This document shows positions 11,856 to 62,165 of a DNA stretch of 64,000 bases, piece after piece. Source of the DNA: an uncultured Elusimicrobia bacterium. Its GTDB lineage: Bacteria; Elusimicrobiota; Elusimicrobia; 2-01-FULL-59-12. Position 1 is the first letter of the stretch; each line of letters starts with the position of its first letter. The notes under the pieces are model-generated. The model worked only from the letters and a program-made list of their open reading frames with translations. It had not been told where the DNA came from and made no database searches. The DNA lies in NCBI GenBank assembly GCA_963702895.1, contig OY969767.1, forward strand, positions 2,240,001 to 2,304,000. Reading direction: 5' to 3'. The translations under genes and the position numbers were made by a program.

Positions 11856-11949
11856 GGGGACGTTCCATCACAAACGTCACAAACTCTAAAGCGCAGGTGC
11901 CAGCACCGGGAGCCTAGGGAGTTTGTGACGTTTGTGATGGAACGTCCCC
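11856..11949. repeat. Palindromic REP-like element, identical to 5709-5802; likely bidirectional terminator
   Basis: Lies between convergent genes and abuts the stop codon of the giant gene. Confidence 0.9.
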
Positions 11950-20900: not shown

Positions 20901-23900
20901 GTTGGTCGAGGCGAGTAGGGCGCTGGCCTGTGCCGGGTCCACCCACGTCGGAACGCTTCCTGCTCCGTTGGACTGCAGGACTTGACCGGAGCTGCCGCTT
21001 GCACCCGCAAGCTTCAGCGTGTTCTGGATATTGAGATCAAGAACCGTGCCGCTCGAGACATAGAACGTCGCCCCGGCTTGGAGGGTCTCCCGGATCAAAA
21101 TGACGTCCGTGGCGGCATTGGTGATGAGATCACTCCATGCGCCGTTTTGGTAGCCGCGGAATTTCGCGCCGCTGGCGTTATAGTAGATCATGCCGTTGAC
21201 CCCGACCGCCGGGTCCCCGGCGTCAGACTTGCGCGGCACAAGGATACTTCCCCCATCCCCTGTGATGTCCAAAAGCGCCTGGGGATTCGCCGTGCCGATG
21301 CCCACCAGGCCCCCCAACATCGCCAGATAAGCGTTCGAGGAGATGCTCACCGCCTGCCCGGAGGCTCCGAAGAGCGCGGCGTTCGCTACGGTGACGCTTG
21401 AGCCATAGGTCTGCGGCGCGCTCCAAAGCTGGTTTTTGTCCACATAGGCCACCGTCGACGGCAGCACCGTGCTCGGGATGCCGCTCGCGATACTCGAGCC
21501 GGTGAGGCCCGTGAGCCCGGAGCCGAGACCCGTAAAGCTTCCCGCTGCCACACCGTAGGTGACGCCCACGCCGCCCGCACTGGTCACGGTGAGACTGGAG
21601 GTCAGGGTCTTGACGCCTGAAATCGTTTGGTTGGTGTCGGTGTAGACGACGTTCGCCGGCAGGTCGCCTGAAGCGATGGTGGCGCTCACGAGTTTTTTGC
21701 TGCTGTCGGTTTTCACAAACTGGCTGGCCGTTAGAGGGTTGAGTTGCAGGCTGCCGGCGTTGACGATGAGGTTGGTGCTCACCGTCACATCGTTCTGGAA
21801 CGTCTGCCAGGCCGTCCAGGTGTTGGTCGAGGCCAGCAAGACGTCCGCTGAGCCAGGATTGACCCACGTCGGAACGGCGCCCGGGCCATTGGATTGCAGC
21901 ACCTGCCCGGAGGAGCCGACGCCATTACCCGCCACCACCATGCTCGAGAACGTCACGCTCGACACGAAGGTCTGGCCCGCTGTCCAGGTGTTGGTAGATG
22001 AAAGGAGGCTGCTCGCGCCAGGGACAGCCACCCAGGTAGGAGCGGCCCCGGGCCCGTTACTTTGAAGGGTGTAACCACTGGAGCCCGCGCTTCCACCGGC
22101 GACGAGTTCCCCATTTAAGGTCAGGCTCCCCGCGACGACGCCATAAATGGCCCGAAGACCGCCAGGTCCCAAGACCGTGGCGCTCGACCCTACATAAAGG
22201 AAGTCCGGATAAGCGGTCGAACCTGCCTGCAAGGTATTGGTGTTCAAAATGTATTCGCCGGCACCGGCTGGTGCCCACGTGAGTCCGCCCGCGCCGTTAT
22301 TGCTCAGAACACCGACGGTGTGGGCCGCTGGCCAGTTGTAGCTCAGCCCTTTGACGTTCACATCGCCTGTGGTGGTGACGCTGCCCGCCACCAAACCGTA
22401 AGTCAGACCGATGCCGCCGGGCGCGCTCACGGCGATCGAAGAGACGTACATCTGCGTCGCCGTCCAGGTGTTGGTGGAATTGAGCAAGGCACTCGCGCTC
22501 GCCGGGTCCACCCACGTCGGTGCGGCGCTCGCGCCACCCGACTGCAGAATCTGACCGCTTGATCCCACGCTGCCGTTGATCGAAAGCGGGGCGTTGGCCG
22601 TCAAGGTCAAAGTCCCGGCTGTCACACCGTAGCTCACCGCCGCGCCGCCGATGCTCGTCACCGTGACGCTTGAGCCATAGGTCTGCGGCGCGCTCCAAAG
22701 CTGATTTTTGTCCACATAGGCCACGGTCGACGGCAGCACCGTGCTGGCAATGCCCGTCACAATGTTGGCGCCGGTGAGATTCGTCAGTCCCGTTCCAAGA
22801 CCCGTAAAGCTTCCCGCTGCCACGCCGTAGGTGACGCCCACGCCGCCCGCACTGGTCACGGTGAGACTGGAGGTCAGGGTCTTGACGCCTGAAATCGTTT
22901 GGTTGGTGTCGGTGTAGACGACGTTCGCCGGCAGGTCGCCTGAAGCGATAGTGGCGCTCACGAGCTTCTTGTCGGCATCGGTCTTCACAAATTGGCTGGC
23001 GGTGAGGGGGTTGAGTCGGACGCTGCCGGCATTGACAATCAAGTTCGTGCTCACCGTCACATCGTTCTGGAACGTCTGCCAGGCCGTCCAGGTGTTGGTG
23101 GAGTTGAGCAAGGCGCTCGCGCTCGCCGGGTCGACCCACGTCGGAACGCTTCCTGCTCCGTTGGACTGCAGGACTTGACCGGAGCTGCCGCTTGCACCTG
23201 CAAGCTTCAGCGTGTTCTGGATATTGAGATCAAGAACCGTGCCGCTTGACACATAGAACGTTGAACCGGGCTGCAGCGATTCCTTCACATGGATGTAATT
23301 GGTGTTGCCGTAGACCAACACATCCACATAAACTTTGGTCGCCGCATCGTAGGGCCCGGTGGGGTCGAGCAAGTTGTTGATCTGATGGCTGTTCATGCTC
23401 AAGGATTGGCTTTGGGCGCCGACACCTGTGATGTTCGGATAGATGCTGCTTTGCACGGCCGCCGGATAGACCGAAAGGGGCGTGATGGAGGAGGCAACGA
23501 CCGTGTTGGGCAGGGTGCCGTTTGCCAGGGCAGCCAGCGCCACGGACTGCGCCGGGAGGGCAATGGAGCTGCCCACCCGCAAGGCTTGGACGGTACCGCT
23601 CGAGACAAAGAAGGTCGCGCCGCTCTGGAGGCTGTCGCTCAAAAGGATGAAGGTGGTGGCCCCGCCGGCGAGGCTGCCGGCCGAGCCGGCGGAGGTGGCG
23701 TAAGAAGCGGTCGCGGCGTTGCCCGTGATGTCGATGCCGGCCGTTCCCGCGCTGATGTTCGCGGGGGTGAGGGCCGTCAGGCCTGAGCCCACGCCCGTGA
23801 AGCTGCCCGCGACGACACCGTAGGTGACGTTCAGGCCGCCGGAGGAGGTCATGATTTGGTTCGCCGTCCAGGTGTTGGTGGTGGCGAGCAGGGTGCTCGC

Positions 23901-26036
23901 GCTTGCCGGGTCGACCCAGGTCGGAACGCTTCCTGCTCCGTTGGACTGCAGGACTTGACCGGAGCTGCCGCTTGCACCCGCAAGCTTCAGCGTGTTCTGG
24001 ATATTGAGATCAAGAACCGTGCCGCTTGACACATAGAAGGTTGCCCCGGCTTGGAGGGTCTCCCGGATGAGAATGACGTCCGTGGCGGCATTGGTGATGA
24101 GATCGCTCCATGCACCGTTTTGGTAGCCGCGGAATTTCGCGCCGCTGGCGTTATAGTAGATCATGCCGTTGACCCCGACCGCCGGGTCCCCGGCGTCGGA
24201 CTTGCGCGGCACAAGGATACTTCCCCCATCCCCTGTGATGTCCAAAAGCGCCTGGGGATTCGCTGTGCCGATGCCCACCAGGCCCCCCAACATCGCCAGA
24301 TAAGCGTTCGAGGAGATGCTCACCGCCTGCCCGGAGGCTCCGAAGAGCGCGGCGTTCGCTACGGTGATGCTGGAGCCATAGGTCTGCGGCGCGCTCCAAA
24401 GCTGGTTTTTGTCCACATAGGCCACGGTCGAGGGCAGCACAGCGCTGGCGATACCGCTCGCAATGTTGGCACCGGTGAGACCTGTCAGGCCTGAACCGAG
24501 ACCCGTAAAGCTGCCCGCCACCACGCCGTAGGTGACGTTCAAACCGCCGGAAGAAGTCACGATCTGGTTGGCCGTCCAGGTGTTGGTGGTAGAAAGCAGG
24601 GCGCTGGCCTGCGCCGGGTCCACCCACGTCGGCGCGGCGCTCGCGCCACCCGACTGCAGGACCTGGCCGGAGGAACCCACGCTGCCGTTGATCGAAAGCG
24701 GGGCGTTCGCGGTGAGGGTCAAAGTCCCGGCCGTCACGCCATAAGTGACCGCCGCGCCGCCAGCACTCGTCACCGTGATGCTCGACCCATACGTCTGCGG
24801 CGCGCTCCAAAGCTGGTTCTTGTCCACATAGGCCACCGTCGACGGCAGTACCGCGCTCGGGATGCCCGTCACGATGTTGGCGCCGGTGAGGCTCGTGAGG
24901 TTGGTGCCCAGGCCCGTAAAGCTCCCCGCCACCACACCATAAGTCACGTTCAGCCCGCCGGAAGAGGTCATGATCTGGTTGGCCGTCCAGGTGTTGGTCG
25001 TCGAAAGAAGCGCGCTGGCGCTGGCCGCCGGGACCCACGTCGGGGCCGATCCGGCCCCGTTTGATTGGAGCACCTCGCCGCTTGAGCCTGCGCTGCCGTT
25101 GATCGAAAGCGGGGCATTCGCCAAGAGGGTGAGGCTCCCCGCCACCACGCCGTAAGTGGCGCTCATGCCGCCGGCATGCGTCACCGTGATGCTCGAAGCA
25201 AAGGTCTTGTTGCCCGTGATGTTCTGGTCGGTGTCCGTGTAGACCACATTGGCCGGCAAATCACCTCCGGCGATGGTCGCGCTCACGAGCTTCTTGTTCC
25301 CATCGGTCTTGACGAACTGGCTCGCGCTCAGATCATTGGCCGTCACGCTGCCCGCCACGATGCCGTAGATCACGTTCAGCCCGCCGGCGTTCGTCACGGT
25401 GAGACTCGAGATCATGGTCACAGGGTTCTGGAACGTCTGATCGGCCGTCCAGGTGTTGGTTGAGTTGAGCAAGCCGTCGCCGGCAATGAGACCGTCGACG
25501 TACTCCTTCGTGGTCAGTTCGGAATCGACCGTCGGCGTGAGTGATCCGCTCTTGCGCGGGAAGGTGGAAAAGGTCTTCAGGCCGTCGATGGATTGGGCCG
25601 TGAAGGTATCGATAAAGGCGTCATAGGTCCGGCCGGAGAGCATGTGCGTGTTGAAGGAAAAAGGCGCGCTCAAAAGCGTTTCGCGCGGCGTAAGGGCTTC
25701 CCCTTCGACCTCGATCTGCAAATAGACGGACGTGCTGTCAAAGACCGAAAAGGGGATGGGCGTCCCCGATCCGATCGAGGCGTTGAAGACGCCGTTGGTG
25801 ACCGTGAGGGTCTGGGATTCGGACCAGGGGCTGGCCGCGGGGAGCTGCGTGCCTCCGGAGAGATCGCTATAAAACTTGAAAACGAAATCGATATTGCCGC
25901 TCGTGGGATTGTTGCTCGTGTCGGTGAGGCGCCCCTGGAAATTGATCACCTGGGGGACATCGGCCGCATAAGACAGGCCGATCGAAAATACCACTAAACT
26001 CACGAGCCGTATGAGGTGGCGTGCGTTCCGGGTCAC
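11949..26036 (-). CDS. Giant (4695 aa) secreted repetitive tail-fibre/adhesin-like protein
   Basis: Signal peptide; N-terminal VPQVINFQGRLTD...TVTNGVFN domain; LTTKEYVD and DAATKVYVD fibre motifs; many STNTWT, GQVLQSxG...PTW and VGIGT repeats; C-terminal IDWSNGN...QDATGGRNINWP domain of a type seen at phage fibre ends. Confidence 0.85.
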   Translation of the reverse strand: MTRNARHLIRLVSLVVFSIGLSYAADVPQVINFQGRLTDTSNNPTSGNIDFVFKFYSDLSGGTQLPAASPWSESQTLTVTNGVFNASIGSGTPIPFSVFDSTSVYLQIEVEGEALTPRETLLSAPFSFNTHMLSGRTYDAFIDTFTAQSIDGLKTFSTFPRKSGSLTPTVDSELTTKEYVDGLIAGDGLLNSTNTWTADQTFQNPVTMISSLTVTNAGGLNVIYGIVAGSVTANDLSASQFVKTDGNKKLVSATIAGGDLPANVVYTDTDQNITGNKTFASSITVTHAGGMSATYGVVAGSLTLLANAPLSINGSAGSSGEVLQSNGAGSAPTWVPAASASALLSTTNTWTANQIMTSSGGLNVTYGVVAGSFTGLGTNLTSLTGANIVTGIPSAVLPSTVAYVDKNQLWSAPQTYGSSITVTSAGGAAVTYGVTAGTLTLTANAPLSINGSVGSSGQVLQSGGASAAPTWVDPAQASALLSTTNTWTANQIVTSSGGLNVTYGVVAGSFTGLGSGLTGLTGANIASGIASAVLPSTVAYVDKNQLWSAPQTYGSSITVANAALFGASGQAVSISSNAYLAMLGGLVGIGTANPQALLDITGDGGSILVPRKSDAGDPAVGVNGMIYYNASGAKFRGYQNGAWSDLITNAATDVILIRETLQAGATFYVSSGTVLDLNIQNTLKLAGASGSSGQVLQSNGAGSVPTWVDPASASTLLATTNTWTANQIMTSSGGLNVTYGVVAGSFTGVGSGLTALTPANISAGTAGIDITGNAATASYATSAGSAGSLAGGATTFILLSDSLQSGATFFVSSGTVQALRVGSSIALPAQSVALAALANGTLPNTVVASSITPLSVYPAAVQSSIYPNITGVGAQSQSLSMNSHQINNLLDPTGPYDAATKVYVDVLVYGNTNYIHVKESLQPGSTFYVSSGTVLDLNIQNTLKLAGASGSSGQVLQSNGAGSVPTWVDPASASALLNSTNTWTAWQTFQNDVTVSTNLIVNAGSVRLNPLTASQFVKTDADKKLVSATIASGDLPANVVYTDTNQTISGVKTLTSSLTVTSAGGVGVTYGVAAGSFTGLGTGLTNLTGANIVTGIASTVLPSTVAYVDKNQLWSAPQTYGSSVTVTSIGGAAVSYGVTAGTLTLTANAPLSINGSVGSSGQILQSGGASAAPTWVDPASASALLNSTNTWTATQMYVSSIAVSAPGGIGLTYGLVAGSVTTTGDVNVKGLSYNWPAAHTVGVLSNNGAGGLTWAPAGAGEYILNTNTLQAGSTAYPDFLYVGSSATVLGPGGLRAIYGVVAGSLTLNGELVAGGSAGSSGYTLQSNGPGAAPTWVAVPGASSLLSSTNTWTAGQTFVSSVTFSSMVVAGNGVGSSGQVLQSNGPGAVPTWVNPGSADVLLASTNTWTAWQTFQNDVTVSTNLIVNAGSLQLNPLTASQFVKTDSSKKLVSATIASGDLPANVVYTDTNQTISGVKTLTSSLTVTSAGGVGVTYGVAAGSFTGLGSGLTGLTGSSIASGIPSTVLPSTVAYVDKNQLWSAPQTYGSSVTVANAALFGASGQAVSISSNAYLAMLGGLVGIGTANPQALLDITGDGGSILVPRKSDAGDPAVGVNGMIYYNASGAKFRGYQNGAWSDLITNAATDVILIRETLQAGATFYVSSGTVLDLNIQNTLKLAGASGSSGQVLQSNGAGSVPTWVDPAQASALLASTNTWTANQIMTSSGGLNVTYGVVAGSVTANDLSASQFVKTDADKKLVSATIASGDLPANVVYTDTNQTISGVKTLTSSLTVTSAGGVGVTYGVAAGSFTGLGTGLTNLTGANIVTGIASTVLPSTVAYVDKNQLWSAPQTYGSSITVANAALFGASGQAVSISSNAYLAMLGGLVGIGTANPQALLDITGDGGSILVPRKSDAGDPAVGVNGMIYYNASGAKFRGYQNGAWSDLITNAATDVILIRETLQAGATFYVSSGTVLDLNIQNTLKLAGASGSSGQVLQSNGAGSVPTWVDPASASALLNSTNTWTATQMYVSSIAVSAPGGIGLTYGLVAGSVTTTGDVNVKGLSYNWPAAHTVGVLSNNGAGGLTWAPAGAGEYILNTNTLQAGSTAYPDFLYVGSSATVLGPGGLRAIYGVVAGSLTLNGELVAGGSAGSSGYTLQSNGPGAAPTWVAVPGASSLLSSTNTWTAGQTFVSSVTFSSMVVAGNGVGSSGQVLQSNGPGAVPTWVNPGSADVLLASTNTWTAWQTFQNDVTVSTNLIVNAGSLQLNPLTASQFVKTDSSKKLVSATIASGDLPANVVYTDTNQTISGVKTLTSSLTVTSAGGVGVTYGVAAGSFTGLGTGLTNLTGANIVTGIASTVLPSTVAYVDKNQLWSAPQTYGSSVTVANAALFGASGQAVSISSNAYLAMLGGLVGIGTANPQALLDITGDGGSILVPRKSDAGDPAVGVNGMIYYNASGAKFRGYQNGAWSDLITNAATDVILIRETLQAGATFYVSSGTVLDLNIQNTLKLAGASGSSGQVLQSNGAGSVPTWVDPAQASALLASTNTWTANQIMTSSGGLNVTYGVVAGSVTANDLSASQFVKTDGNKKLVSATIASGDLPANVVYTDTNQTISGVKTLTSSLTVTSAGGVGVTYGVAAGSFTGLGTGLTNLTGANIVTGIASTVLPSTVAYVDKNQLWSAPQTYGSSVTVTSIGGAAVSYGVTAGTLTLTANAPLSINGSVGSSGQILQSGGASAAPTWVDPASASALLNSTNTWTAWQTFQNDVTVSTNLIVNAGSVRLNPLTASQFVKTDADKKLVSATIASGDLPANVVYTDTNQTISGVKTLTSSLTVTSAGGVGVTYGVAAGSFTGLGTGLTNLTGANIVTGIASTVLPSTVAYLSSTNTWTGGQTIASPSGVSVTYGVVAGSVTANDLSASQFVKTDGNKKLVSATIASGDLPANVVYTDTNQTISGVKTLTSSLTVTSAGGVGVTYGVAAGSFTGLGTGLTNLTGANIVTGIASTVLPSTVAYVDKNQLWSAPQTYGSSVTVTSIGGAAVSYGVTAGTLTLTANAPLSINGSVGSSGQILQSGGASAAPTWVDPASASALLNSTNTWTAWQTFQNDVTVSTNLIVNAGSLQLNPLTASQFVKTDSSKKLVSATIASGDLPANVVYTDTNQTISGVKTLTSSLTVTSAGGVGVTYGVAAGSFTGLGTGLTNLTGANIVTGIASTVLPSTVAYVDKNQLWSAPQTYGSSVTVTNAALLGASGQAVTISSNLVVSGAVLASNNSGTSGQVLQSQGPGAAPTWVSPASASALLNSTNTWTAWQTFQNDVTVSTNLIVNAGSLQLNPLTASQFVKTDSSKKLVSATIASGDLPANVVYTDTNQTISGVKTLTSSLTVTSAGGVGVTYGVAAGSFTGLGTGLTNLTGANIVTGIASTVLPSTVAYVDKNQLWSAPQTYGSSITVANAALFGASGQAVSISSNAYLAMLGGLVGIGTANPQALLDITGDGGSILVPRKSDAGDPAVGVNGMIYYNASGAKFRGYQNGAWSDLITNAATDVILIRETLQAGATFYVSSGTVLDLNIQNTLKLAGASGSSGQVLQSNGAGSVPTWVDPASASALLNSTNTWTAWQTFQNDVTVSTNLIVNAGSLQLNPLTASQFVKTDSSKKLVSATIASGDLPANVVYTDTNQTISGVKTLTSSLTVTSAGGVGVTYGVAAGSFTGLGTGLTNLTGANIVTGIASTVLPSTVAYVDKNQLWSAPQTYGSSITVANAALFGASGQAVTISSNLVVSGAVLASNNSGTSGQVLQSQGPGAAPTWVSPASASALLNSTNTWTAWQTFQNDVTVSTNLIVNAGSLQLNPLTASQFVKTDSSKKLVSATIASGDLPANVVYTDTNQTISGVKTLTSSLTVTSAGGVGVTYGVAAGSFTGLGTGLTNLTGANIVTGIASTVLPSTVAYVDKNQLWSAPQTYGSSVTVTNAALLGASGQAVTISSNLVVSGAVLASNNSGTSGQVLQSQGPGAAPTWVSPASASALLNSTNTWTAWQTFQNDVTVSTNLIVNAGSLQLNPLTASQFVKTDSSKKLVSATIASGDLPANVVYTDTNQTISGVKTLTSSLTVTSAGGVGVTYGVAAGSFTGLGTGLTNLTGANIVTGIASTVLPSTVAYVDKNQLWSAPQTYGSSITVANAALFGASGQAVTISSNLVVSGAVLASNNSGTSGQVLQSQGPGAAPTWVSPASASALLNSTNTWTAWQTFQNDVTVSTNLIVNAGSLQLNPLTASQFVKTDSSKKLVSATIASGDLPANVVYTDTNQTISGVKTLTSSLTVTSAGGVGVTYGVAAGSFTGLGTGLTNLTGANIVTGIASTVLPSTVAYLSSTNTWTGGQTIASPSGVSVTYGVVAGSVTANDLSASQFVKTDGNKKLVSATIASGDLPANVVYTDTNQTISGVKTLTSSLTVTSAGGVGVTYGVVAGSVTANDLSASQFVKTDGSKKLVSAGLVAGDLPGGATSYIQLTQSLQTGSTFYVSSGTVQTQLALNGALVLSGSAGTASQVLQSNGPGAAPTWGAGATGLLSSTNTWTAGQTYVSSVTFSSMVVVNNASLAITNGQFGSTINQKGSTGSGSVEIDWSNGNTQHVVLTGNPTLTFANGISGRKYVLMVKQDATGGRNINWPGTIRFPGGAYPVLSSAGNKTDYMAFIFNDVDSTYDNLAYTLNY
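12980..15250. repeat. 624-bp near-identical tandem units inside the giant gene
   Basis: The same sequence recurs at 13207, 13831, 14455 and 15079, and again at 16000 and 16624. Confidence 0.9.
17990..22520. repeat. ~2-kb near-identical direct repeat (offset 2490 bp) inside the giant gene
   Basis: Matching pairs 18733/21223, 19186/21676 and 19807/22297. Confidence 0.9.
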
Positions 26037-26903: not shown

Positions 26904-28643
26904 CTAGCGCGCGACGACGACCGTCCCCGAGGCCGAGGTGCCTCCCTGCTCGATCTGGTAGAGGTAGATGCCGCCGGGGACGGCTTTGCCTCCGTCGTCT
27001 TTGCCATCCCAGGCCAGCGTCGAATCGGAGGCAGGTCCGGGCGCAAGCTCCGCCACAAAAGCATCCGAGAGGTCATACATTTTCCCGGAGAGCGGCAGGA
27101 GCTGCGGGTTGTCAAACTCGAAAATCACTTTGTCATTCCAACCGTCGCCATTCGGCGAAAAGATCCGCGGGTAGACGCGCGTGAGGACGAGTCCCGACGC
27201 GTGGGAGGCGGCCCGGATCTGGAAGTGCCCGATTCTTGGCGCCGTAAAGGAGACCGTGTTGTCGGTCGTATTGATGACGGCCGAGGTTTTGACCCACTCG
27301 TTGCCGTTAAACCAGAAGAGCGAGAGCTCCTCGGCCGCCTGCGCGGAATCGATGAGCGGGATCCTGAACGGTCGGCTCGCCGCAGGTGCCCCGGGAACAA
27401 CGACGCCGCCTGAGACGCTGTAGGCGAGCGTCCCCCGGAGGACCGGCAAAGCAAACGTGGGGGCGGCAATCTCCTCCCCCGTATCGTAGTTGAAGAGCTT
27501 CACCGACATGGACCGGGCGACGCGGCCGGTCTCTTCCGAGGAAACTTCCGTCAAGGTGAGCTCGAGGTCTGATCCATAGGTGGTTTGGCCGCGCAAGAAG
27601 ACATTGGCGGAGTTCTGCGGGAGCTGGATCCGTGAGACGAAATCGGATGCCACAAAATAATGGTTCAGGTCGCTCGAGTCATCCAAGACCCTGCTCCAGT
27701 CGGAGGTCTGGCCGTCCGTGTCGATAGTTTTAAGCGCGTAATAGGTCACCGTGCCGTCCGTGGTCGTCGTCCAACTCGCCGCCGCGGGCGTCGACACAAC
27801 CACCCACTGACTGCGCGCTTGGAGGAGGCTGGTCGAGGTGTAAATCTGATAGCCGAAGAGGTTCGTCATGGCGCTGCCATCGGTGCGCTCGGTGACGGCG
27901 TGCCACTGGAAATCGATCTGATAGGCGCTGGGACCTGTTTGTGTGCGCGTCAGCGAAAATCCCGTCGGCATGCGGGGCAGGCTCGCCGTGCCGGGGATCG
28001 TCACCGTGATGCTGTTGCTGGTGGCGCTCGGCACATTCAGGTCATTGAGCGCCAAGACCCTGTACTCGTAGGTGGCCCCCGGCGTGACGCTTGCGTCCGT
28101 CGAGGTCGTGGCGGTTTCGCTGGCGATCGCCGAAAACGAAAGGCCGTCGGAGCTGCGCTCAACCACAAAGACCGTCCCGTCGGGATTGCCGTTGCCGTCC
28201 CAGGAGAGCCCCACGGCGATGAAGCTCACCGAGGTCGTCGTCAGGGCGAGCGGCGGATTGGCCAGGGTGCAGGTGCTCACCGAAGCGGTCCAGCTTGACG
28301 AGCTGTCTTCGACCGTGTCATAGGCGATCACGCGGGTGAAATAGACGGCGTTCACGTCGAGCGCCGTGAAGGTCGAGCTCAGGACCAGCGTGCTCGAAGA
28401 GTGCGGCTCGACGAAGGCGCTCGAGGCGAGCTCCACCGTATACTGGACCGTGGTTCCGGCGAGTCCTTGCCAGTCCACCGCGAGCGTCGTGGCCGTAACG
28501 CTCGAGAAAACGACCGCGGTCGGGTCGGGCGGCGCCGCCTCAAGGCGCGCGGCCACCAGCAGAGGCGCGAGGACGCCCCCCAGAAATAGCGATAGTCTTC
28601 TGGCCATACACACCCATATAGAGTGGAATAGTCCTTCCGACAA
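26904..28643 (-). CDS. Secreted fibronectin type III protein with T9SS type-B/FlgD-Ig-like C-terminal domain (likely start ATG 28607)
   Basis: FN3 patterns (LSWDGNGNP, YEYRVLALN); C-terminus YPRIFSPNGDGWND...WDGKDDGGKAVPGGIYLYQI...TVVVAR. Confidence 0.85.
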   Translation of the reverse strand: MSEGLFHSIWVCMARRLSLFLGGVLAPLLVAARLEAAPPDPTAVVFSSVTATTLAVDWQGLAGTTVQYTVELASSAFVEPHSSSTLVLSSTFTALDVNAVYFTRVIAYDTVEDSSSSWTASVSTCTLANPPLALTTTSVSFIAVGLSWDGNGNPDGTVFVVERSSDGLSFSAIASETATTSTDASVTPGATYEYRVLALNDLNVPSATSNSITVTIPGTASLPRMPTGFSLTRTQTGPSAYQIDFQWHAVTERTDGSAMTNLFGYQIYTSTSLLQARSQWVVVSTPAAASWTTTTDGTVTYYALKTIDTDGQTSDWSRVLDDSSDLNHYFVASDFVSRIQLPQNSANVFLRGQTTYGSDLELTLTEVSSEETGRVARSMSVKLFNYDTGEEIAAPTFALPVLRGTLAYSVSGGVVVPGAPAASRPFRIPLIDSAQAAEELSLFWFNGNEWVKTSAVINTTDNTVSFTAPRIGHFQIRAASHASGLVLTRVYPRIFSPNGDGWNDKVIFEFDNPQLLPLSGKMYDLSDAFVAELAPGPASDSTLAWDGKDDGGKAVPGGIYLYQIEQGGTSASGTVVVAR

Positions 28644-29581: not shown

Positions 29582-31081
29582 ATGAAAACAATCCATAGAG
29601 TCTATCACGGGAAGGCCGGCCGTTTTCGCCCCGTTCGACGGTTCACAAGGGCGTCGTGGGCCGTTCTTTTGTCTTTTTCCATCGCGATCTCCACGCTTCT
29701 TCCCGTCTCAAGTTTCGCGGCAGGCCCGGGGACAACGAGCGGCGATCTCCTCAAGGTCCCGGTCAGCGCCCGCGCGATCGGCATGGGCGAAGCCTACACG
29801 GCGCTCGCCAACGATTCGTCCGCCCTCGACTGGAACCCCGCGGGCATGTCCTTTATGCAGCAGAAGGAAGCGGCCTTCATGCACTCATCGCTCTACGAAG
29901 GCATCCATTATGAGCGCCTGGCCTTTGCCGCCCCTGGCGACAGCTATTCTTACGGAGCGTCCATGTCCTATCTGGGATATGGCTCGATGGAAGGCTTCGA
30001 CAACAACGGAATCCCCATCGGCGATCAGTCCGCCTACTCGTATCTTTTGACCGGCGGCCTGGCCTCGATGGTGCACGACCGCCTGTCCCTGGGCGTGACC
30101 GCCTCTTACCTCCGTCAAAAACTGGCGGACACCTCCGCCGGTACCGCGGTCTTTAATACCGGTATCCTCTACGAGCTCGCCTCGCGCCCGTGGGGCGGAG
30201 CCTACCGGCTGGGATTTTCGGCCTTGAACCTGGGACCGGGCCTCGAATTTGTCTCCGAGTCGAACCCGCTCCCTCGCAAATACAGGTTCGGCGCTTCGGC
30301 CCTGCATCTCAAGGATTTGCCCCTGAATCTGGCGGCGGACGTTCTCATGCCCAATGACAACTCGACGACGTTTTCCATGGGTTCGGAATATTGGTTTAAA
30401 GAGATGATCGCGCTGCGCTTGGGCTACGCGGGCTCGCGCGATGAGGGGAGCGGTCTGCGCCTGGGCTTCGGCTTTCGTCACCGGGATATTCTCTTCGACT
30501 ATGCCTTTAGTGACCAGGGGGACCTGGGATCGGCGCATCGCTTCGAGATGATGTTCCGCTGGGGGGACCGGATGCATCCGCTCAACCGCGAACAGCGCGC
30601 GATCCTCAAGGAAGCCAAGCGCGCGGGGACGGAGCAGGATTTTGTGCAGGAGATCCTCACGCTCAACGAGATCTTAAACACGGACCCGACCAATGACCGG
30701 ATTTTGCGAAAGATGATTCTAGCGCATGAAGCGATGCTCAAGAACGAGCTCCAGGACGTGATGACGGCCGACGGCCGACCAGCCCCTCCGGAAGAGGAGA
30801 TTCCATCGCCTGAGGAATTCGCGCTGCAGGACATGGTGCCCGGGCAGCAGGCGATCGTGAGCAACACCGTGCCTGCCAATTTTGACCCTGCCGACCCGCT
30901 CGGGCTCGGGAACCTCCCCGACACCCTCAGCCATCAAGCCCCCGCGGCGACGCCCGGCGTTGTGAGCGCGCCTTCGGCCGTGCCGGCCGTCGAGAAGGCC
31001 GCCGCGAGCTTCGATGCAGACATCTCCGCCGGTCCGGAATCCGACGGGATCCTGCTCAAACCCAGCGACATCTACAACTAA
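29582..31081 (+). CDS. PorV/PorQ-family outer-membrane barrel with helical and Pro/Ala-rich C-terminal extension
   Basis: LKVPVSARAIGMGEAYTALANDSSALDWNPAG; ALRLGY...FDYAF...LGSAHRF. Confidence 0.8.
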   Translation: MKTIHRVYHGKAGRFRPVRRFTRASWAVLLSFSIAISTLLPVSSFAAGPGTTSGDLLKVPVSARAIGMGEAYTALANDSSALDWNPAGMSFMQQKEAAFMHSSLYEGIHYERLAFAAPGDSYSYGASMSYLGYGSMEGFDNNGIPIGDQSAYSYLLTGGLASMVHDRLSLGVTASYLRQKLADTSAGTAVFNTGILYELASRPWGGAYRLGFSALNLGPGLEFVSESNPLPRKYRFGASALHLKDLPLNLAADVLMPNDNSTTFSMGSEYWFKEMIALRLGYAGSRDEGSGLRLGFGFRHRDILFDYAFSDQGDLGSAHRFEMMFRWGDRMHPLNREQRAILKEAKRAGTEQDFVQEILTLNEILNTDPTNDRILRKMILAHEAMLKNELQDVMTADGRPAPPEEEIPSPEEFALQDMVPGQQAIVSNTVPANFDPADPLGLGNLPDTLSHQAPAATPGVVSAPSAVPAVEKAAASFDADISAGPESDGILLKPSDIYN

Positions 31082-58031: not shown

Positions 58032-58883
58032 TTATTCGTCTTGGACTTGGACGGGCACGGGCAGCGCCTCGTCAATGGCAGGTTCTTCCTCGACCGCCTC
58101 CGCCCCTTGCTCCTCGGGCGCGTCTGCGGTTGAGGGCGCGTCTGCGGTTGAGGGCGCGTCTGCGGTTGAGGGCGCGTCTGCGGGCGCGGTCGCTTCGACG
58201 ACGGTGGAGTTTTGGGCTGCTCGCTCGGGCGAGACGTCTTCTTTGTTGTCCTTGTTGAAGTTGGGCGGCTTGTTCTTCACAAAGAAGACGACACGGCGAT
58301 TTTTGGCGCGATTTTCATCGCTGTCATTGGCGACCAGCGGATGGAATTCCCCATAACCAATAGCCGCCATATGAGCGGGCGGCATGCCGAGGCCGCGAAT
58401 CATGTACTGCACAACGCGCGTCGCCCGCGCGGCGGAGAGCTCCCAGTTGGAAGAGAAATGGGCGTTGTGGATGGGAATATTGTCCGTATGCCCTTCCACC
58501 ACGATATCATGATCTTCTTTGGCAAGCTTCAGAAGAGACGGCGTGATTTTCGACAGGATCTCCTTCATCCGGGGGGAAAGATCCGCGGACCCGCTTCCAA
58601 AAAAAATGTTTTCACCGCTTTCTTGAAGCGTGATTTGCATTCCTTCTTTGGTCACTTTGACCTCGGTCGCCACACCCTCTTGCTGCATGGCGACGGAGAC
58701 ATCCTTTTTGATCTGCTGGATGTCCTTGCTCAGGGCCGCCGAGAGCGCATAGAGAATAATGAAAAAGCACACGAGCTCCGTCATGAGATCGGCGTAATTG
58801 ACGAGCCACGGAGGAGCGGGATGGCCGATCTGCGACACCCTCGGGTCGTGAATCGAAATCATGTTTTTCAGTTTTTTGGCCAT
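58032..58883 (-). CDS. motB: Stator MotB/PomB-family protein with OmpA peptidoglycan-binding domain and 21-bp repeat tail
   Basis: WLVNYADLMT (conserved Asp), EGHTDN, NWELSAARA and NRRV. Confidence 0.93.
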   Translation of the reverse strand: MAKKLKNMISIHDPRVSQIGHPAPPWLVNYADLMTELVCFFIILYALSAALSKDIQQIKKDVSVAMQQEGVATEVKVTKEGMQITLQESGENIFFGSGSADLSPRMKEILSKITPSLLKLAKEDHDIVVEGHTDNIPIHNAHFSSNWELSAARATRVVQYMIRGLGMPPAHMAAIGYGEFHPLVANDSDENRAKNRRVVFFVKNKPPNFNKDNKEDVSPERAAQNSTVVEATAPADAPSTADAPSTADAPSTADAPEEQGAEAVEEEPAIDEALPVPVQVQDE

Positions 58884-58905
58884 GGCGTTTCCTCGGCGCC
58901 TTCCC

Positions 58906-59685
58906 CTAGGCGGCCTTCTGGATCAGGGCGCGTTTCGAGGGTTCCAGATAAGCCTTCAAATTGGCCTCCATGATGGAGGGGCTCACACCGCTTTGCAGAA
59001 GAAGCACTCCCCGAATAATGATTTCCTTGATCAGGAGCTCCTCTTCCGATCGGCGGCGAAGCTTACCGGCCATGGGGAGGAAGAGCATGTAGCCGGAGCC
59101 CAAACCGAAAAAGGCGGCGGCCAGACACAGCGCCATCCGGCGCGGAACTTCTTCGACATTGGAAATCGTGTTGAGCATGAGGATCATCCCCAGAACGGTG
59201 CCGATAATCCCAAAAGCCGGACTATAGGTTCCCAGCGAATTGAAAATCTCTTGCCCCACCTGATGGCGCTCACGAATAAAGCCGAGCTCCGTCTCCATCA
59301 TGTTGCGGATAAATTCCTGGTCTGATCCATCGATCACCAGCTGCACGCCACGCTTAAGAAAGTCATTTTTGAGGAGCTTGACGTCGCCTTCGAGCGCCAA
59401 AAATCCTTCGGTACGGCCCTTCTTGGCAAAGTTCACAAAGGTCGTGACGATTTCGGAGGTGTCCTCGCCGCTGGCGGCCATCACTTTTTTGAGAACCCTA
59501 AAGAGACCGAAGACTTGCCCAATGGGATAATTGACCAGAATCGCACAAAAGGTCCCTCCCATCACAATGAGAAAGGCCTCATAGTTGAGAAATGGCTTAA
59601 AACCCGCGACGCCCTCCCCCAAAAAGACGGAGATAATCACGAGCCCAGCTCCCACCACAATTCCTAACAGTGTCGCGATGTCCAT
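58906..59685 (-). CDS. motA: Stator MotA/PomA-family protein
   Basis: GRTEGFLALE, SPAFGIIGTVLGMI and FLPMAGKL. Confidence 0.95.
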   Translation of the reverse strand: MDIATLLGIVVGAGLVIISVFLGEGVAGFKPFLNYEAFLIVMGGTFCAILVNYPIGQVFGLFRVLKKVMAASGEDTSEIVTTFVNFAKKGRTEGFLALEGDVKLLKNDFLKRGVQLVIDGSDQEFIRNMMETELGFIRERHQVGQEIFNSLGTYSPAFGIIGTVLGMILMLNTISNVEEVPRRMALCLAAAFFGLGSGYMLFLPMAGKLRRRSEEELLIKEIIIRGVLLLQSGVSPSIMEANLKAYLEPSKRALIQKAA

Positions 59686-59812
59686 CTCAACCTCCCGGAA
59701 TCAGGGACGCGTCACGGTCGATGAAGGACGAGACATGCGCTGCCTGTTCCTATCGTCTCACTCACCTTCATGGCCCTCTTGTCCCTTATCTCTTTTCTCT
59801 CATCTCACTCTT

Positions 59813-59983
59813 TTAGGCGGCTTTACGTCTTGGGCTGACGATTCTTTTCCTTATGGTTCTGCCGTGCCTGCTGCGCGTTTCATGGACGACCCTCTGGGGC
59901 TTCGCGTCTTCCATCAAGAATCCAATCACAAGGCAAAGAAATCCCACGAGAATCCCCGTCATGGCAATCAGTGTTAGCGACAT
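59813..59983 (-). CDS. Small (56 aa) single-TM protein with basic tail, below the ORF-track cutoff
   Basis: AAGGAG RBS; MSLTLIAMTGILVGFLCLVIGFLMEDAKPQRVVHETRSRHGRTIRKRIVSPRRKAA; overlaps the flbD end. Confidence 0.6.
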   Translation of the reverse strand: MSLTLIAMTGILVGFLCLVIGFLMEDAKPQRVVHETRSRHGRTIRKRIVSPRRKAA

Positions 59984-60219
59984 GGTGTACTCCTTTCGGA
60001 TTCCCCCCGCAAATACTGGGGAAGGTACGTCGATCCCGCAAAGACCGTCTTCTTGTATTCGATCGCTTTCTGGACCACTTCCGTCACTGGCTCACGAACA
60101 ACAATTTTGTTCCCTGTCGCCATGGCGAGCACCGTTTCGATGCCATGGCTTTCGATGGACTCGATCAGCTCGGCGTTCACCACCGTTTCCTGGCCGTTGA
60201 GTCGGTGGAGTTTAATCAT
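59974..60219 (-). CDS. flbD: FlbD/SwrD-family protein
   Basis: MIKLHRLNGQ..VVNAELIESIE....TVLAMATGNKIVVRE; ATGA overlap with the upstream gene. Confidence 0.9.
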   Translation of the reverse strand: MIKLHRLNGQETVVNAELIESIESHGIETVLAMATGNKIVVREPVTEVVQKAIEYKKTVFAGSTYLPQYLRGESERSTPCR

Positions 60220-62126
60220 GCGGCCGCTCCCGATTGCAGCTTCCACTGCTCAAACCAGCTCTTGAGCGACGGGTCTTTATTGATCTCACACATTCTTTCG
60301 TAGGCCCCGGCGGCCTCGTTGACCATGCCCTGGGCCGCGTAAGAACTCCCCAAATACTGATAGGCCTGCCAATGGTCAGGCTGGGCCTGGATGGCCTCAT
60401 GAAAGCTGCGAATGGCTTCCGCCAAGAGGCCCTGCGCGAAGAAGGCGGTGCCCGCTTGGAATCTCGCCTCCGCCTCGGCGGGATCCACCTTGGCTGGAGG
60501 GGGGGCGGCTTTGCCAAGACTCAAATGCAGAGGCTCCGTATCATCAGCCGCCTCCTCGCCTTCGAGGATGCCCATCTTTTGTTTCTTGCGGATGCTGATT
60601 TTGTTTTCTTTTTCGAGCTTGGTGATGATGTCCATGAGCTTTTTACGCTCATCCTCAATCTGCTCCATGGAAAGCGGTCGGCCATAATCCATGGATTCCT
60701 TGAGCAGTGCGGCGGCGCCCGCCGACATATTGTTGAAGAACTTGTTGATGTAATCCACCGGCGCTTCGCGCAGCGCCCGCGCGAGCTGCTCCGTACCGAT
60801 TTCGCGAACGATGCCCTGGACCGCCTGGTCCGGGAATTTGAGAATGTCCTCAAAGAGGATGACTTCTTCTCGGACGCGCTCATAGAGCTGCGGTTTCTCA
60901 TTGCGGAGGTAATCCAGAATATTTTCCCGGGTGGTCTTATCAGCCTCATTGAGGATCTTCACGAGGTTTTCAATGCCGCCTAAGACGAAATCGACTTTTT
61001 TCTTAACGTATTCATCGATCGACATCACCTGTTCCAGGGAGGTTTGGCGGATGGTGGCCGTCTCCACAGCGACGCGCGCCTGAAGCTCCGGTGGAAACGA
61101 GGAAAAGATCTCTTTGGCGAACTCCGGTTTGAGGTACGACAGGACGAGCGACACGATCCACGGTTCTTCCTTACGAAGGAGGTAGGCCAGCCCTTTGAGA
61201 TTTTGTTCCGAAACATATTTGAACGGCTCAAACTTTTTCATGGCTGCCTCCTCCTCCTCTAACTTCTGCTGTTCTTCTTCGGTGAGCACCCCATCCCCTT
61301 CTCCGCTGCCCCCTCCTCCACCCCCTTCTTGCTTACCTTCATTTTCATTGGCCATCTCCTGTTCGCTTTCCTCTTTCATCGTGGTCATCTGCTCAATGCG
61401 TTGCGTCTTGTCTTCGAGGGCGGCGTTGAGCCGGCGGAAAAAGCTTGCCAGAGGCCCCCAGAGGAAGAGTAAGAGCCACAAGGTCAGGGCGATGGGAATG
61501 ATCCATTTGGGCGCGAGCAATTGCTGCCAGGCCGTCTCGCTAAAGGTCGTGGGGGTGAAGACCATCTGATTTTCCGTGACTTTCAGAAGCGCGATGATGG
61601 CTTGCTTGACTGCCAGAAGCTTATCTCCAGGAACTTTGTTGTCATAGAGCACCGTCACCAGCAGTTTTTTGATGGTCGTCCGGACTTCGACGCGCTTCTG
61701 AAGCATTTGCCCTCCGGATTCTTGAGAGGAGCCGCCACGATCCTCCTCCTGCTGAAACGGAGACTTGGGCATGGGAACGCCAGGGACAAGGACTTTGGCT
61801 TGCGGGAGGGGCAGGGCTTCGCCCGTGTCTGTCTCGCTCTTTTTTTTGTCGCTCTTTTTCTTTTCCATCCCCAATTCAGAGGCCCGCGATTCAAGACCCA
61901 TCTCCACATCCACGATCACGACCGCTTTTCCCGGGCCTAAGATTTTGTCCAGGACGTTTTCCTGCAGGTATTCCGTCTTTTCCTTCTCAAATTTGGATTC
62001 TTGCTCGAGGAGCATCATATCGGGGGAGAGCCCGGAGGACGCCGCTGGCGAGGCCGACTGCCCCACGGCCGCCCAGACGATCCCGCTGGTCAGCAGGAAC
62101 GATGCAAAAAGTAAATGGATTCGCAT
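60216..62126 (-). CDS. FliF(C-terminal ring)-TM-FliG(M/C)-TPR fusion protein
   Basis: Signal peptide; LDKILGPGKAVVIVDV and IKKLLVTVLYD (FliF RBM3-like); TM; PFKYV...EEPWIVSLVLSYL, GGIE..VKILN, LFEDI and FFNNMS (FliG); C-terminal TPRs. Confidence 0.85.
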   Translation of the reverse strand: MRIHLLFASFLLTSGIVWAAVGQSASPAASSGLSPDMMLLEQESKFEKEKTEYLQENVLDKILGPGKAVVIVDVEMGLESRASELGMEKKKSDKKKSETDTGEALPLPQAKVLVPGVPMPKSPFQQEEDRGGSSQESGGQMLQKRVEVRTTIKKLLVTVLYDNKVPGDKLLAVKQAIIALLKVTENQMVFTPTTFSETAWQQLLAPKWIIPIALTLWLLLFLWGPLASFFRRLNAALEDKTQRIEQMTTMKEESEQEMANENEGKQEGGGGGGSGEGDGVLTEEEQQKLEEEEAAMKKFEPFKYVSEQNLKGLAYLLRKEEPWIVSLVLSYLKPEFAKEIFSSFPPELQARVAVETATIRQTSLEQVMSIDEYVKKKVDFVLGGIENLVKILNEADKTTRENILDYLRNEKPQLYERVREEVILFEDILKFPDQAVQGIVREIGTEQLARALREAPVDYINKFFNNMSAGAAALLKESMDYGRPLSMEQIEDERKKLMDIITKLEKENKISIRKKQKMGILEGEEAADDTEPLHLSLGKAAPPPAKVDPAEAEARFQAGTAFFAQGLLAEAIRSFHEAIQAQPDHWQAYQYLGSSYAAQGMVNEAAGAYERMCEINKDPSLKSWFEQWKLQSGAAA

Positions 62127-62136
62127 TCTTGTGACA

Positions 62137-62165
62137 AGTCTAGCCTGCCCCTTTGGGAGTTTCAA
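62137..62165 (-). promoter_or_regulatory. Sigma70-like promoter of the motor operon
   Basis: TTGAAA-17 nt-TAGACT, ending 10 nt before ATG 62126. Confidence 0.5.

Follow-up and report, generated by a model that had tools for sequence, protein, structure and literature searches.

The window analysed herein is a 64,000-nucleotide stretch (positions 2,240,001 to 2,304,000 of contig OY969767.1) from an uncultured Elusimicrobia bacterium, whose genome is represented by a single contig of 2,724,539 bp (2.72 Mb) with an estimated completeness of 98%. Five tightly packed open reading frames (ORFs) lie on the minus strand of this window, with fixX and fixC on one side and ppdK on the other: a gene in which parts of the flagellar rotor proteins FliF and FliG are joined to tetratricopeptide repeats (TPRs), flbD, a 56-amino-acid (aa) ORF with one transmembrane (TM) helix, motA, and motB. 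All five genes of the unit that an earlier note on this DNA had placed between fixX and ppdK were thus found. Their parts are as follows.

60216..62165, minus strand: fusion gene, FliF(RBM3)-TM-FliG_M-FliG_C-TPR, 649 aa from TTG 62165, more likely 636 aa from ATG 62126
61521..62033, minus strand: predicted periplasmic ring-building domain resembling ring-building motif 3 (RBM3) of FliF, residues ~45-215 (AlphaFold model, Foldseek, VIA-align)
61431..61508, minus strand: predicted TM helix, equivalent of FliF TM2, residues ~220-245 (hydropathy scan and model)
60990..61190, minus strand: FliG middle domain, residues 326-392 (PF14841)
60591..60911, minus strand: FliG C-terminal (torque) domain, residues 419-525 (PF01706)
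60267..60473, minus strand: C-terminal cytoplasmic TPRs, residues 565-630 (TPR_2, TPR_1, TPR_16)
59974..60219 (ORF 59974-60246), minus strand: flbD, 81 aa from ATG (PF06289)
59813..59983, minus strand: 56-aa ORF, one N-terminal TM helix and a basic tail (ORF, hydropathy)
58906..59685, minus strand: motA, flagellar-type stator A subunit, 259 aa, four TM segments (PF01618)
58032..58883, minus strand: motB, stator B subunit, 283 aa (PF13677 and PF00691)
62137..62165, minus strand: sigma-70-like match TTGAAA-17-TAGACT, 9/12, just upstream of ATG 62126, at chance level

The reading frames of the operon are all intact and their starts are coupled. The ATG of flbD overlaps the TGA of the fusion (ATGA), the 56-aa ORF overlaps the end of flbD and has AAGGAG 7 nucleotides 5' of its ATG, and the ATG of motA is preceded by GGGAGG. 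The fusion, whose 636-aa form (from the ATG at 62126) is that of the public record, is probably co-transcribed with flbD and the flagellar-type motA-motB, with translational coupling. The sigma-70-like promoter claimed in the earlier note did not stand: the site at 62165-62137 is no better than those in shuffled sequence (3 such sites in 5 kb vs 2.5 +/- 1.4). A scan with one genome per species recovered 107 relatives of the fusion, 80 of which were kept as loci; seven of these form the window's own clade, and 73 (L013-L085) lie outside it. The 56-aa ORF was matched by tblastn only in the six closest loci with sequence there (L006, L007, and L009-L012; 36-61% identity) and appears to be specific to the window's clade.

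The fusion protein and its stator

For the window protein alone, the FliF ancestry of the N-terminal part is faint. A profile scan of the 649-aa ORF matched FliG_M, FliG_C, and TPR, while the Pfam model YscJ_FliF_C (PF08345) gave only E 0.68 and 10.8 bits. The same model nonetheless matches 10 of 16 aligned fusion homologues (best E 5.5e-6). The four best Protein Data Bank (PDB) matches to a profile of 42 N-terminal sequences are all FliF (E 0.033-0.13), and the PGVP motif of that profile aligns with GVPGA of FliF. Four residues of this PGVPxP motif (P84, G85, P87, and P89), which lies in a disordered loop rich in Lys, Glu, and Gly, are invariant in the 42 sequences. The AlphaFold model, with a predicted local distance difference test (pLDDT) of 74.1, consists of a helix, a long strand, the disordered loop, a long strand, a helix, and a strand, followed by the membrane helix; its long helix covers 175-220. 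With this model, ranks 1-19 in Foldseek were all FliF ring structures or SpoIIIAG. A VIA-align search against representatives placed three FliF S-ring structures at the top (Z 11.9, 10.9, and 10.4; root-mean-square deviation 2.1-2.3 over 95-99 residues), the first being a match to Vibrio FliF 255-452, with PrgK (Z 8.9) and SpoIIIAG (Z 8.7) as runners-up. Judged from family profile and predicted fold, the FliF ancestry is firm.

Two hydrophobic segments (residues ~16-34 and ~215-245) and a Glu/Gly-rich linker complete this part of the fusion. The model of the N-terminal part of YscJ/FliF (PF01514, RBM1-RBM2) matched neither the fusion nor, at E <= 1, any other place in the genome. The fusion therefore carries RBM3 and a short collar of FliF, without RBM1 and RBM2, much as the earlier note had read it. 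That note had also held that a rotor would be a misreading if the N-terminal region proved unrelated to FliF; the YscJ_FliF_C matches among homologues and the S-ring fold at the head of the structure searches speak for relatedness. A four-copy complex prediction of the periplasmic domain (score 0.01, mark 0.42) was neutral on ring formation.

The FliG part follows behind the membrane helix. FliG_M (PF14841) matched with E 7e-16 and 58.6 bits (cut-off 25) and FliG_C (PF01706) with E 8.5e-27 and 94 bits (cut-off 23.3), and the two domains together match Thermotoga maritima FliG with E 5.5e-40. FliG_N (PF14842) gave only a sub-threshold internal echo (16.8 bits, cut-off 25) at residues 340-421, which is the M/C region. 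The same model scores 89.9 bits on the canonical FliG of G064, a flagellated genome with FlhA that belongs to a sister genus and is, apart from the host's own, the only one sampled in the family. The FliG equivalog TIGR00207 reached 140.6 bits on the fusion, under its cut-off of 226.7, and covers model positions 92-330 only. TPRs, found at residues 565-630 (E 4e-9), are present in 16 of 16 aligned homologues. The earlier note's description of FliG middle and C domains without FliG-N, followed by TPRs, was accordingly borne out. A further difference from canonical FliG concerns the EHPQ(R) motif of the middle domain, which has a role in FliM binding. Its place reads EEPW in the window fusion, and EHPQ is kept in 0 of the 80 fusion loci; it stands at the aligned place in T. 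maritima FliG and in the canonical FliG of G064. The loss of this motif fits the absence of FliM described below.

The three named genes behind the fusion point to a flagellar-type stator. FlbD (PF06289) matched over profile positions 1-59 of 59 (E 1e-20, 73.5 bits, cut-off 24.7). MotA matched MotA_ExbB (PF01618) with 87.9 bits, has four hydrophobic segments, and finds its best PDB matches in flagellar MotA/PomA (E 1e-47 to 1e-45). The NCBIfam models of MotP, MotA, and PomA gave 201-217 bits, with 217.3 at best (MotP, cut-off 394) and 214.8 for MotA (cut-off 340); TolQ/ExbB models gave only E 0.05-0.17. Both the Arg and the Glu of the cytoplasmic charged pair of MotA are present at the aligned positions of the window protein, and the basic residue is kept in 53 of 53 loci. 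In MotB, a plug (PF13677, 45.2 bits) precedes an OmpA-like peptidoglycan-binding domain (PF00691, 67.1 bits), and the motif YADLMT, which contains the TM Asp, is invariant in 49 of 49 loci; the best of the NCBIfam equivalogs (MotB and MotS) reached 148.2 bits, short of the cut-off of 283. The C-terminus of MotB beyond the OmpA-like domain (58032-58200, minus strand) is a repetitive tail of Ala, Pro, Ser, Thr, and Asp, in which one six-residue unit occurs three times in identical form and the last residues are acidic.

Flagella, distribution, and genomic partners

Profile searches of the whole genome for FHIPEP (FlhA), YscJ_FliF, FliP, and Flagellin_N gave no match, and FliMN_C gave only E 0.27-0.94; the same searches match the flagellated controls E. 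coli, B. subtilis, Caulobacter, and Thermotoga. The lack of an export gate, flagellin, and FliM/N, which the earlier note had stated for the window, thus extends to the whole genome as far as these profiles detect. Source annotations name many homologues of the fusion "flagellar motor switch protein FliG", and one might suppose that the operon is the ordinary flagellar rotor and stator of its host, the other flagellar genes having been missed. This supposition is hardly conceivable, since five hallmark families are unmatched in a nearly complete single contig under searches that do find them in the controls, and since both the EHPQ motif and FliG-N are absent from the fusion.

The flagellated relative G064 is informative in this respect. 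One of its contigs (C1) carries a flagellar cluster with flagellin, FlaG, FliD, FliS, MotA, MotB, FlgC, FlgD, FlgE, a sigma factor, FliH, FliI, FliL, FliM, FliN, FliO, FliP, FliQ, FliR, FlhB, and FlhA, together with a FliF of 525 aa (matched by both FliF models) and a FliG of 334 aa (N, M, and C domains) of its own. On other contigs of G064 lie the fusion operon, with a MotA 87% identical to that of the window, and a second fusion gene that has a MotA of its own and is accompanied by two MotBs. A further genome (G242) holds the same three sets, namely the flagellar cluster, the fusion operon, and the second fusion-MotAB. Because the fusion operon stands beside a complete flagellum with its own fliF, fliG, and motAB, it is neither the flagellar rotor nor a relic of it, and a non-flagellar job, as the earlier note had suggested, is the best reading. 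That note had named a full flagellar gene set elsewhere, lacking its own fliF and fliG, as a finding that would make the operon an ordinary rotor. What was found is a host genome without hallmark matches and a flagellated relative with separate fliF and fliG.

The fusion family is phylum-wide in Elusimicrobiota. A word-seeded search, in which 8000 candidates were scored, gave 192 proteins at E <= 1e-3, and the named organisms among these are Elusimicrobia, Elusimicrobiota, or Endomicrobiales; a HMMER search with residues 45-545 gave 103 cluster representatives at E <= 1e-30, many of which have lengths of 480-735 aa and align with almost the entire query. Nearly all of the 80 loci are likewise titled Elusimicrobia or Endomicrobia, with a few called only "bacterium". 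The sole locus whose title names another phylum (L042, Ignavibacteria) has the arrangement of a PorV-like-TPR gene and a fusion, at 41% identity; a binning error or a transfer may account for it. In 78 of the 80 loci, the N-terminal domain shares its frame with the FliG part, the other two showing a frame change or a contig end. FliG_C was found in 87 of the 251 Elusimicrobiota genomes sampled and in 59 of 86 genera, with up to six matches per genome; of the 150 matches listed, about 139 are within open frames longer than 400 aa. It is nearly missing from two heavily sampled families (1/70 and 1/84) and present in 84 of the 96 genomes of the remaining families.

Between the window fusion and its closest locus (L006), nonsynonymous divergence (dN) is 0.10 and synonymous divergence (dS) is 1.8 (saturated), a ratio similar to that of ppdK. 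A tree of the FliG M and C domains was built from 49 chosen rows: 13 locus proteins (11 fusion orthologues and two of the second paralogue described below), 20 long forms, 15 of canonical length, and the FliG of G064. Fifteen of the 16 canonical-length FliGs form one group with a Shimodaira-Hasegawa-like approximate likelihood ratio test (SH-aLRT) value of 99, apart from all 33 long forms; the tree is unrooted, and its backbone among the long forms is without resolution. These data bear on the view that the operon consists of drifting leftovers of a lost flagellum with no present function. The rest of a flagellum is indeed unmatched in the genome, and FHIPEP is found in 6 of the 251 Elusimicrobiota genomes, so that ancestors of the phylum may have been flagellated. 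Nonetheless, such a relic is very improbable: the frames are intact with coupled starts, dN lies far below dS, as in ppdK, one architecture recurs across classes, the FliG domains branch apart from canonical FliGs, and the operon coexists with a complete flagellum in G064 and G242.

The operon is not the stand-alone minimal unit described in the earlier note. In 70 of the 73 loci outside the window's clade, a barrel of the PorV/PorQ family with C-terminal TPRs is encoded directly upstream of the fusion, the remaining three lacking sequence on that side. Between the fusion and flbD-motAB, these distant loci have one or two large coiled-coil genes. One of their products, protein Y, is found downstream of the fusion in 66 of the 73; it has no TM segment, a Pro-rich N-terminus, and a composition rich in Glu, Gln, and Lys. 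The host's protein Y (762 aa) matched no Pfam or NCBIfam family, and Atlas gave only low-recognition coiled-coil look-alikes. Of the 73 loci, 48 to 50 have flbD-motA-motB farther on, 1.3-5.3 kb past the fusion, and 11 are cut short; over all 80 loci, the three genes are downstream on the same strand in 54, and a further 12 end at contig ends. A protein end resembling the C-terminal domain (CTD) of type IX secretion systems (T9SS) is encoded upstream of the barrel gene in 31 of the 62 loci with room for it. In one relative with a complete genome (L062:10257-12596), a FlbD domain (residues 705-761) is in one frame with protein Y, giving 779 aa; this could be a genuine fusion or else a high-GC frame that runs on.

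In the window's clade, by comparison, the fusion abuts flbD, and fixX lies upstream in 6 of 7 loci and in the window. The orthologues of the partners are nonetheless present in this genome, together but without the fusion, at C1:18970-39993 (coordinates on the genome's contig), some 450 kb off around the circle. This region encodes giant CTD-like proteins, the PorV-like-TPR protein (582 aa), a coiled-coil protein of 1609 aa ending in TPRs, and protein Y. The PorV-like-TPR gene (C1:26281-28029) matched NF033709 (PorV_fam) with 93.6 bits, above the cut-off of 90. Since the ancestral cluster appears to have been split with the fusion kept beside flbD-motAB, this arrangement is the best in-silico hint that these four proteins work directly together.

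A second, paralogous system lies at C1:1835246-1841116, where the genes for a PorV-like barrel, a TPR-LysM protein, a 502-aa fusion, MotA, two MotBs, and a dCache-HAMP-PAS histidine kinase follow in this order, which is repeated in G064. The 502-aa protein is a FliF_C-FliG_M-FliG_C fusion without TPRs, in which PF08345 reaches 24.4 bits (cut-off 23.8) and the fliF model TIGR00206 aligns over positions 401-497 (E 1.6e-6). About 16 kb from this system, at C1:1857619-1883220 (minus strand), lies an open frame of ~8,500 aa followed by one of ~1,750 aa.

Other T9SS-like parts are scattered through the genome. The PorU model is matched in its CTD part alone at 23 places, among them the tandem array described below, and a dozen further stretches resemble a PorV-like barrel. 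Within the window, an ORF at 29582-31081 (plus strand) matches PorV (PF19572) with 30.4 bits (cut-off 27). A PorV-type shuttle beside CTD cargo is a feature of neighbours in relatives, not of the window operon. Models of the GldL/GldM motor and the GldK/GldN ring (TIGR03513, TIGR03517, TIGR03525, and TIGR03523) found no match in the genome, although none of 14 controls exceeded the cut-offs either, which leaves the sensitivity of these searches unproven. An SprA-like frame of 1813 aa (C1:1187754-1190987, minus strand) is matched collinearly by the model in four places, with 63, 49, 36, and 33 bits against a cut-off of 200, and similar frames of ~1800 aa occur in 214 of the 251 genomes. As a specific partner of the fusion, the SprA-like protein was rejected, because these genomes include those of a family in which FliG_C is found in 1 of 70.

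Just upstream of the window (C1:2185315-2224423, minus strand), at least 11 large ORFs (frames of 655-1653 aa) stand in tandem, each with an end that matches only the PorU CTD. In the window itself lie a 4695-aa ORF with almost no Pfam match (11949-26036, minus strand) and a 579-aa ORF containing fn3 (26904-28643, minus strand). Two opposed Mutator-family transposases (PF00872, E 1e-73 each; 3220-4467, plus strand, and 9395-10645, minus strand) bracket ORFs without family matches.

A probable non-flagellar rotor-stator module

The fusion-stator operon is part of a larger envelope system, apparently specific to Elusimicrobiota. We consider it likely that a rotor-stator module driven by ions and unrelated to flagellar function, typical of the phylum and coupled to an envelope output, has this operon as its core. 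The output, as synteny suggests, is perhaps the handling of surface proteins. In such a module, RBM3 domains would assemble a membrane ring like the S-ring of FliF, and this ring would display a ring of FliG(M+C) beneath the membrane, the covalent link making FliG-N needless. The C domain of FliG would be pushed by stator units of the MotA5B2 type, which MotB would tie to peptidoglycan and FlbD would assist, with the driving ion flow passing the conserved Asp of MotB. Other partners would take the place of FliM and FliN, possibly via the TPRs and the coiled-coil proteins of the ancestral cluster. Force or motion might then pass through the periplasmic ring to the PorV-like barrel-TPR protein of the outer membrane and from there, in what is the least secure step, to very large surface proteins with a T9SS-type CTD, for their movement, attachment, or release.

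Several observations weigh against this reading. The scores of FliG, MotA, and MotB all fall short of the NCBIfam equivalog cut-offs, and the three are diverged members of their families rather than routine orthologues. The classical interface between FliG and MotA is altered: E. coli FliG R281 and D288/D289 of the torque helix pair with MotA E98 and R90, according to a paper on MotAB evolution (mBio 2025, PMC12505986). The Arg that would pair with Glu98 is missing from all 80 fusions, where its position holds G, N, or S; Glu occupies the first acidic position in 80 of 80, whereas the second, variable in the other loci, is a Ser in the window protein. Unlike the fusions, canonical FliG of G064 has retained the Arg. 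On the stator side, the MotA Glu is replaced by Gln in 44 of 53 orthologues. These two losses had been considered as a co-evolved interface, an idea that was dropped because Gln is likewise found in the canonical flagellar MotA of G064, a genome whose canonical FliG is Arg-bearing.

Gene content adds to these points. Fourteen loci of the Endomicrobia type, each with at least 7 kb of downstream sequence, have no motA after the fusion; when five such genomes were searched, MotA homologues were found on other contigs, with 56-74% identity in three and 33-37% in two. The CTD-bearing gene stands upstream in only half of the loci. Moreover, a family in which the SprA-like frame occurs in 68 of 70 genomes has FliG_C in 1 of 70. 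The SprA-like protein is thus present where FliG_C is nearly absent, so that fusion-MotAB is not a general energiser or requirement of the putative translocon, and the module would at most serve particular pairs of PorV-like protein and cargo. Rotation, ring assembly, and FliG-MotA contact are all proposed by homology, and the connection to surface proteins by synteny.

The altered interface raises the alternative that the assembly does not rotate at all. The FliF-FliG ring might only dock and activate MotAB, the whole acting as an energy transducer or envelope tether in which MotAB would use ion flow to pass force or a conformational change to the PorV-like-TPR protein, much as ExbBD-TonB or TolQR-TolA-Pal do. 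The torque helix has lost half of its classical charge pair, no rod or shaft gene was found that could carry rotation outward, and the partners, an outer-membrane barrel with TPRs and, in the second paralogous system, a TPR-LysM protein, are typical of envelope-spanning tethers. Nonetheless, the alternative seems unlikely: MotA is of the flagellar type, accompanied by FlbD and scoring at 200 bits or more with MotA/PomA/MotP models against the marginal E values of TolQ/ExbB, and the strong constraint on FliG_M and FliG_C, together with the retained RBM3 ring domain, corresponds to the needs of a rotor.

The rotor-stator module might also be extended into a bolder proposal, which is tentative and, taken as a whole, doubtful. 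It would be an undescribed envelope machine in which a self-contained FliF(RBM3)-FliG ring is driven by FlbD-MotAB stators of its own, coiled-coil and TPR proteins stand in for the C-ring, and a PorV-like barrel-TPR protein substitutes for the rod; its task would be to move, anchor, or release giant T9SS-tailed surface proteins. Such a machine would be a flagellum-derived counterpart of the GldLM motor, present up to six-fold per genome for different cargoes, and would predate the flagella of the phylum or be independent of them.

Relation to known systems

The operon shares with the flagellar rotor and stator the RBM3 fold, FliG_M and FliG_C, the Arg and Glu of the MotA charged pair, the plug, Asp, and OmpA-like domain of MotB, and the order flbD-motA-motB. 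It differs in that the fusion has no FliF RBM1/RBM2 or FliG-N, joins FliF and FliG in one chain, adds C-terminal TPRs, and keeps neither EHPQ nor the Arg of the torque helix; in addition, the host genome gave no match for FliM/N, an export apparatus, a rod, a hook, or a filament. Engineered FliF-FliG fusions of Salmonella and Vibrio (PDB 8z4d and 8z4g) reportedly demonstrate that one covalent chain can form an S-ring. They are man-made, comprise full-length FliF and full-length FliG, and act within the flagellum; 8z4d is among the best structural matches to the N-terminal model of the fusion (Z 10.4).

A natural FliF-FliG fusion has a precedent in the Chlamydiaceae, where a FliF-FliG(M) protein of ~330 aa occurs in bacteria without flagella, as set out in the accessible part of Bergeron 2016 (PMC4768692). 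The two fusions have in common a single chain with a signal sequence (putative in the window fusion), a shortened periplasmic FliF part, a TM segment, and a cytoplasmic FliG-like domain. The chlamydial protein, as presented there, has an RBM2-like and an RBM-like region, FliG M only, no TPR, and neighbours related to the type III secretion system, with no dedicated MotAB reported in that part; the Elusimicrobiota fusion has RBM3, FliG M and C, TPRs, and its own stator. The NCBIfam model of the chlamydial fusion (PRK05934) gave a weak match on the window fusion at residues 321-365 (E 5e-4).

Within Elusimicrobiota, Uzun et al. 2022 (bioRxiv 10.1101/2022.07.08.499144) report, in the accessible part of their preprint, numerous homologues of motAB, flbD, and fliG in most free-living members without flagellar structural genes; they call the role of these genes unclear and suggest a link to gliding or twitching. 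That part treats the genes at the level of KEGG gene names, and it contains no mention of the FliF part, the fusion, the TPRs, the operon, the PorV-like partner, or the coexistence with flagella. In the MotAB evolution paper cited above, a term search found no occurrence of Elusimicrobia or FlbD, and a 2025 preprint, as far as its accessible part goes, raises the general question of rotor proteins without filaments. Beyond the chlamydial fusion and the remark on orphan genes in Elusimicrobiota, no description of the fusion, operon, or partners was found in the literature covered, subscription journals lying outside this coverage.

That rotor proteins of the flagellum occur in genomes without one is a recognised puzzle, of which Elusimicrobiota provide a clean, phylum-wide case. 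Here, a flagellar-type stator and the half of the rotor that receives torque are strongly constrained, fused to a simpler unit, and duplicated within genomes, and the module appears to be wired to outer-membrane and coiled-coil partners instead of the export gate, rod, and switch complex. If it turns, it would be the smallest natural FliG-MotAB motor, and a tractable one for the minimal needs of torque, for MS-ring assembly without RBM1/2, and for the question of flagellar co-option versus ancestry. It also bears on how uncultured Elusimicrobiota, including magnetotactic ones without flagella, might move or handle giant surface proteins.

The T9SS and gliding motor of Bacteroidota comprises GldLM/PorLM, the PorKN ring, SprA/Sov, and PorV, and the Agl-Glt machinery serves in Myxococcus. 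The fusion system differs from the former in that its motor would be MotAB with a FliF-FliG ring rather than GldLM, and in that the SprA-like protein, below cut-off, does not co-vary with the fusion. What the fusion loci share with it is a barrel of the PorV family as a conserved neighbour. By analogy, a functional likeness is possible, in which an ion-driven inner-membrane motor of the 5:2 type would act on outer-membrane barrels and very large CTD-bearing surface proteins.

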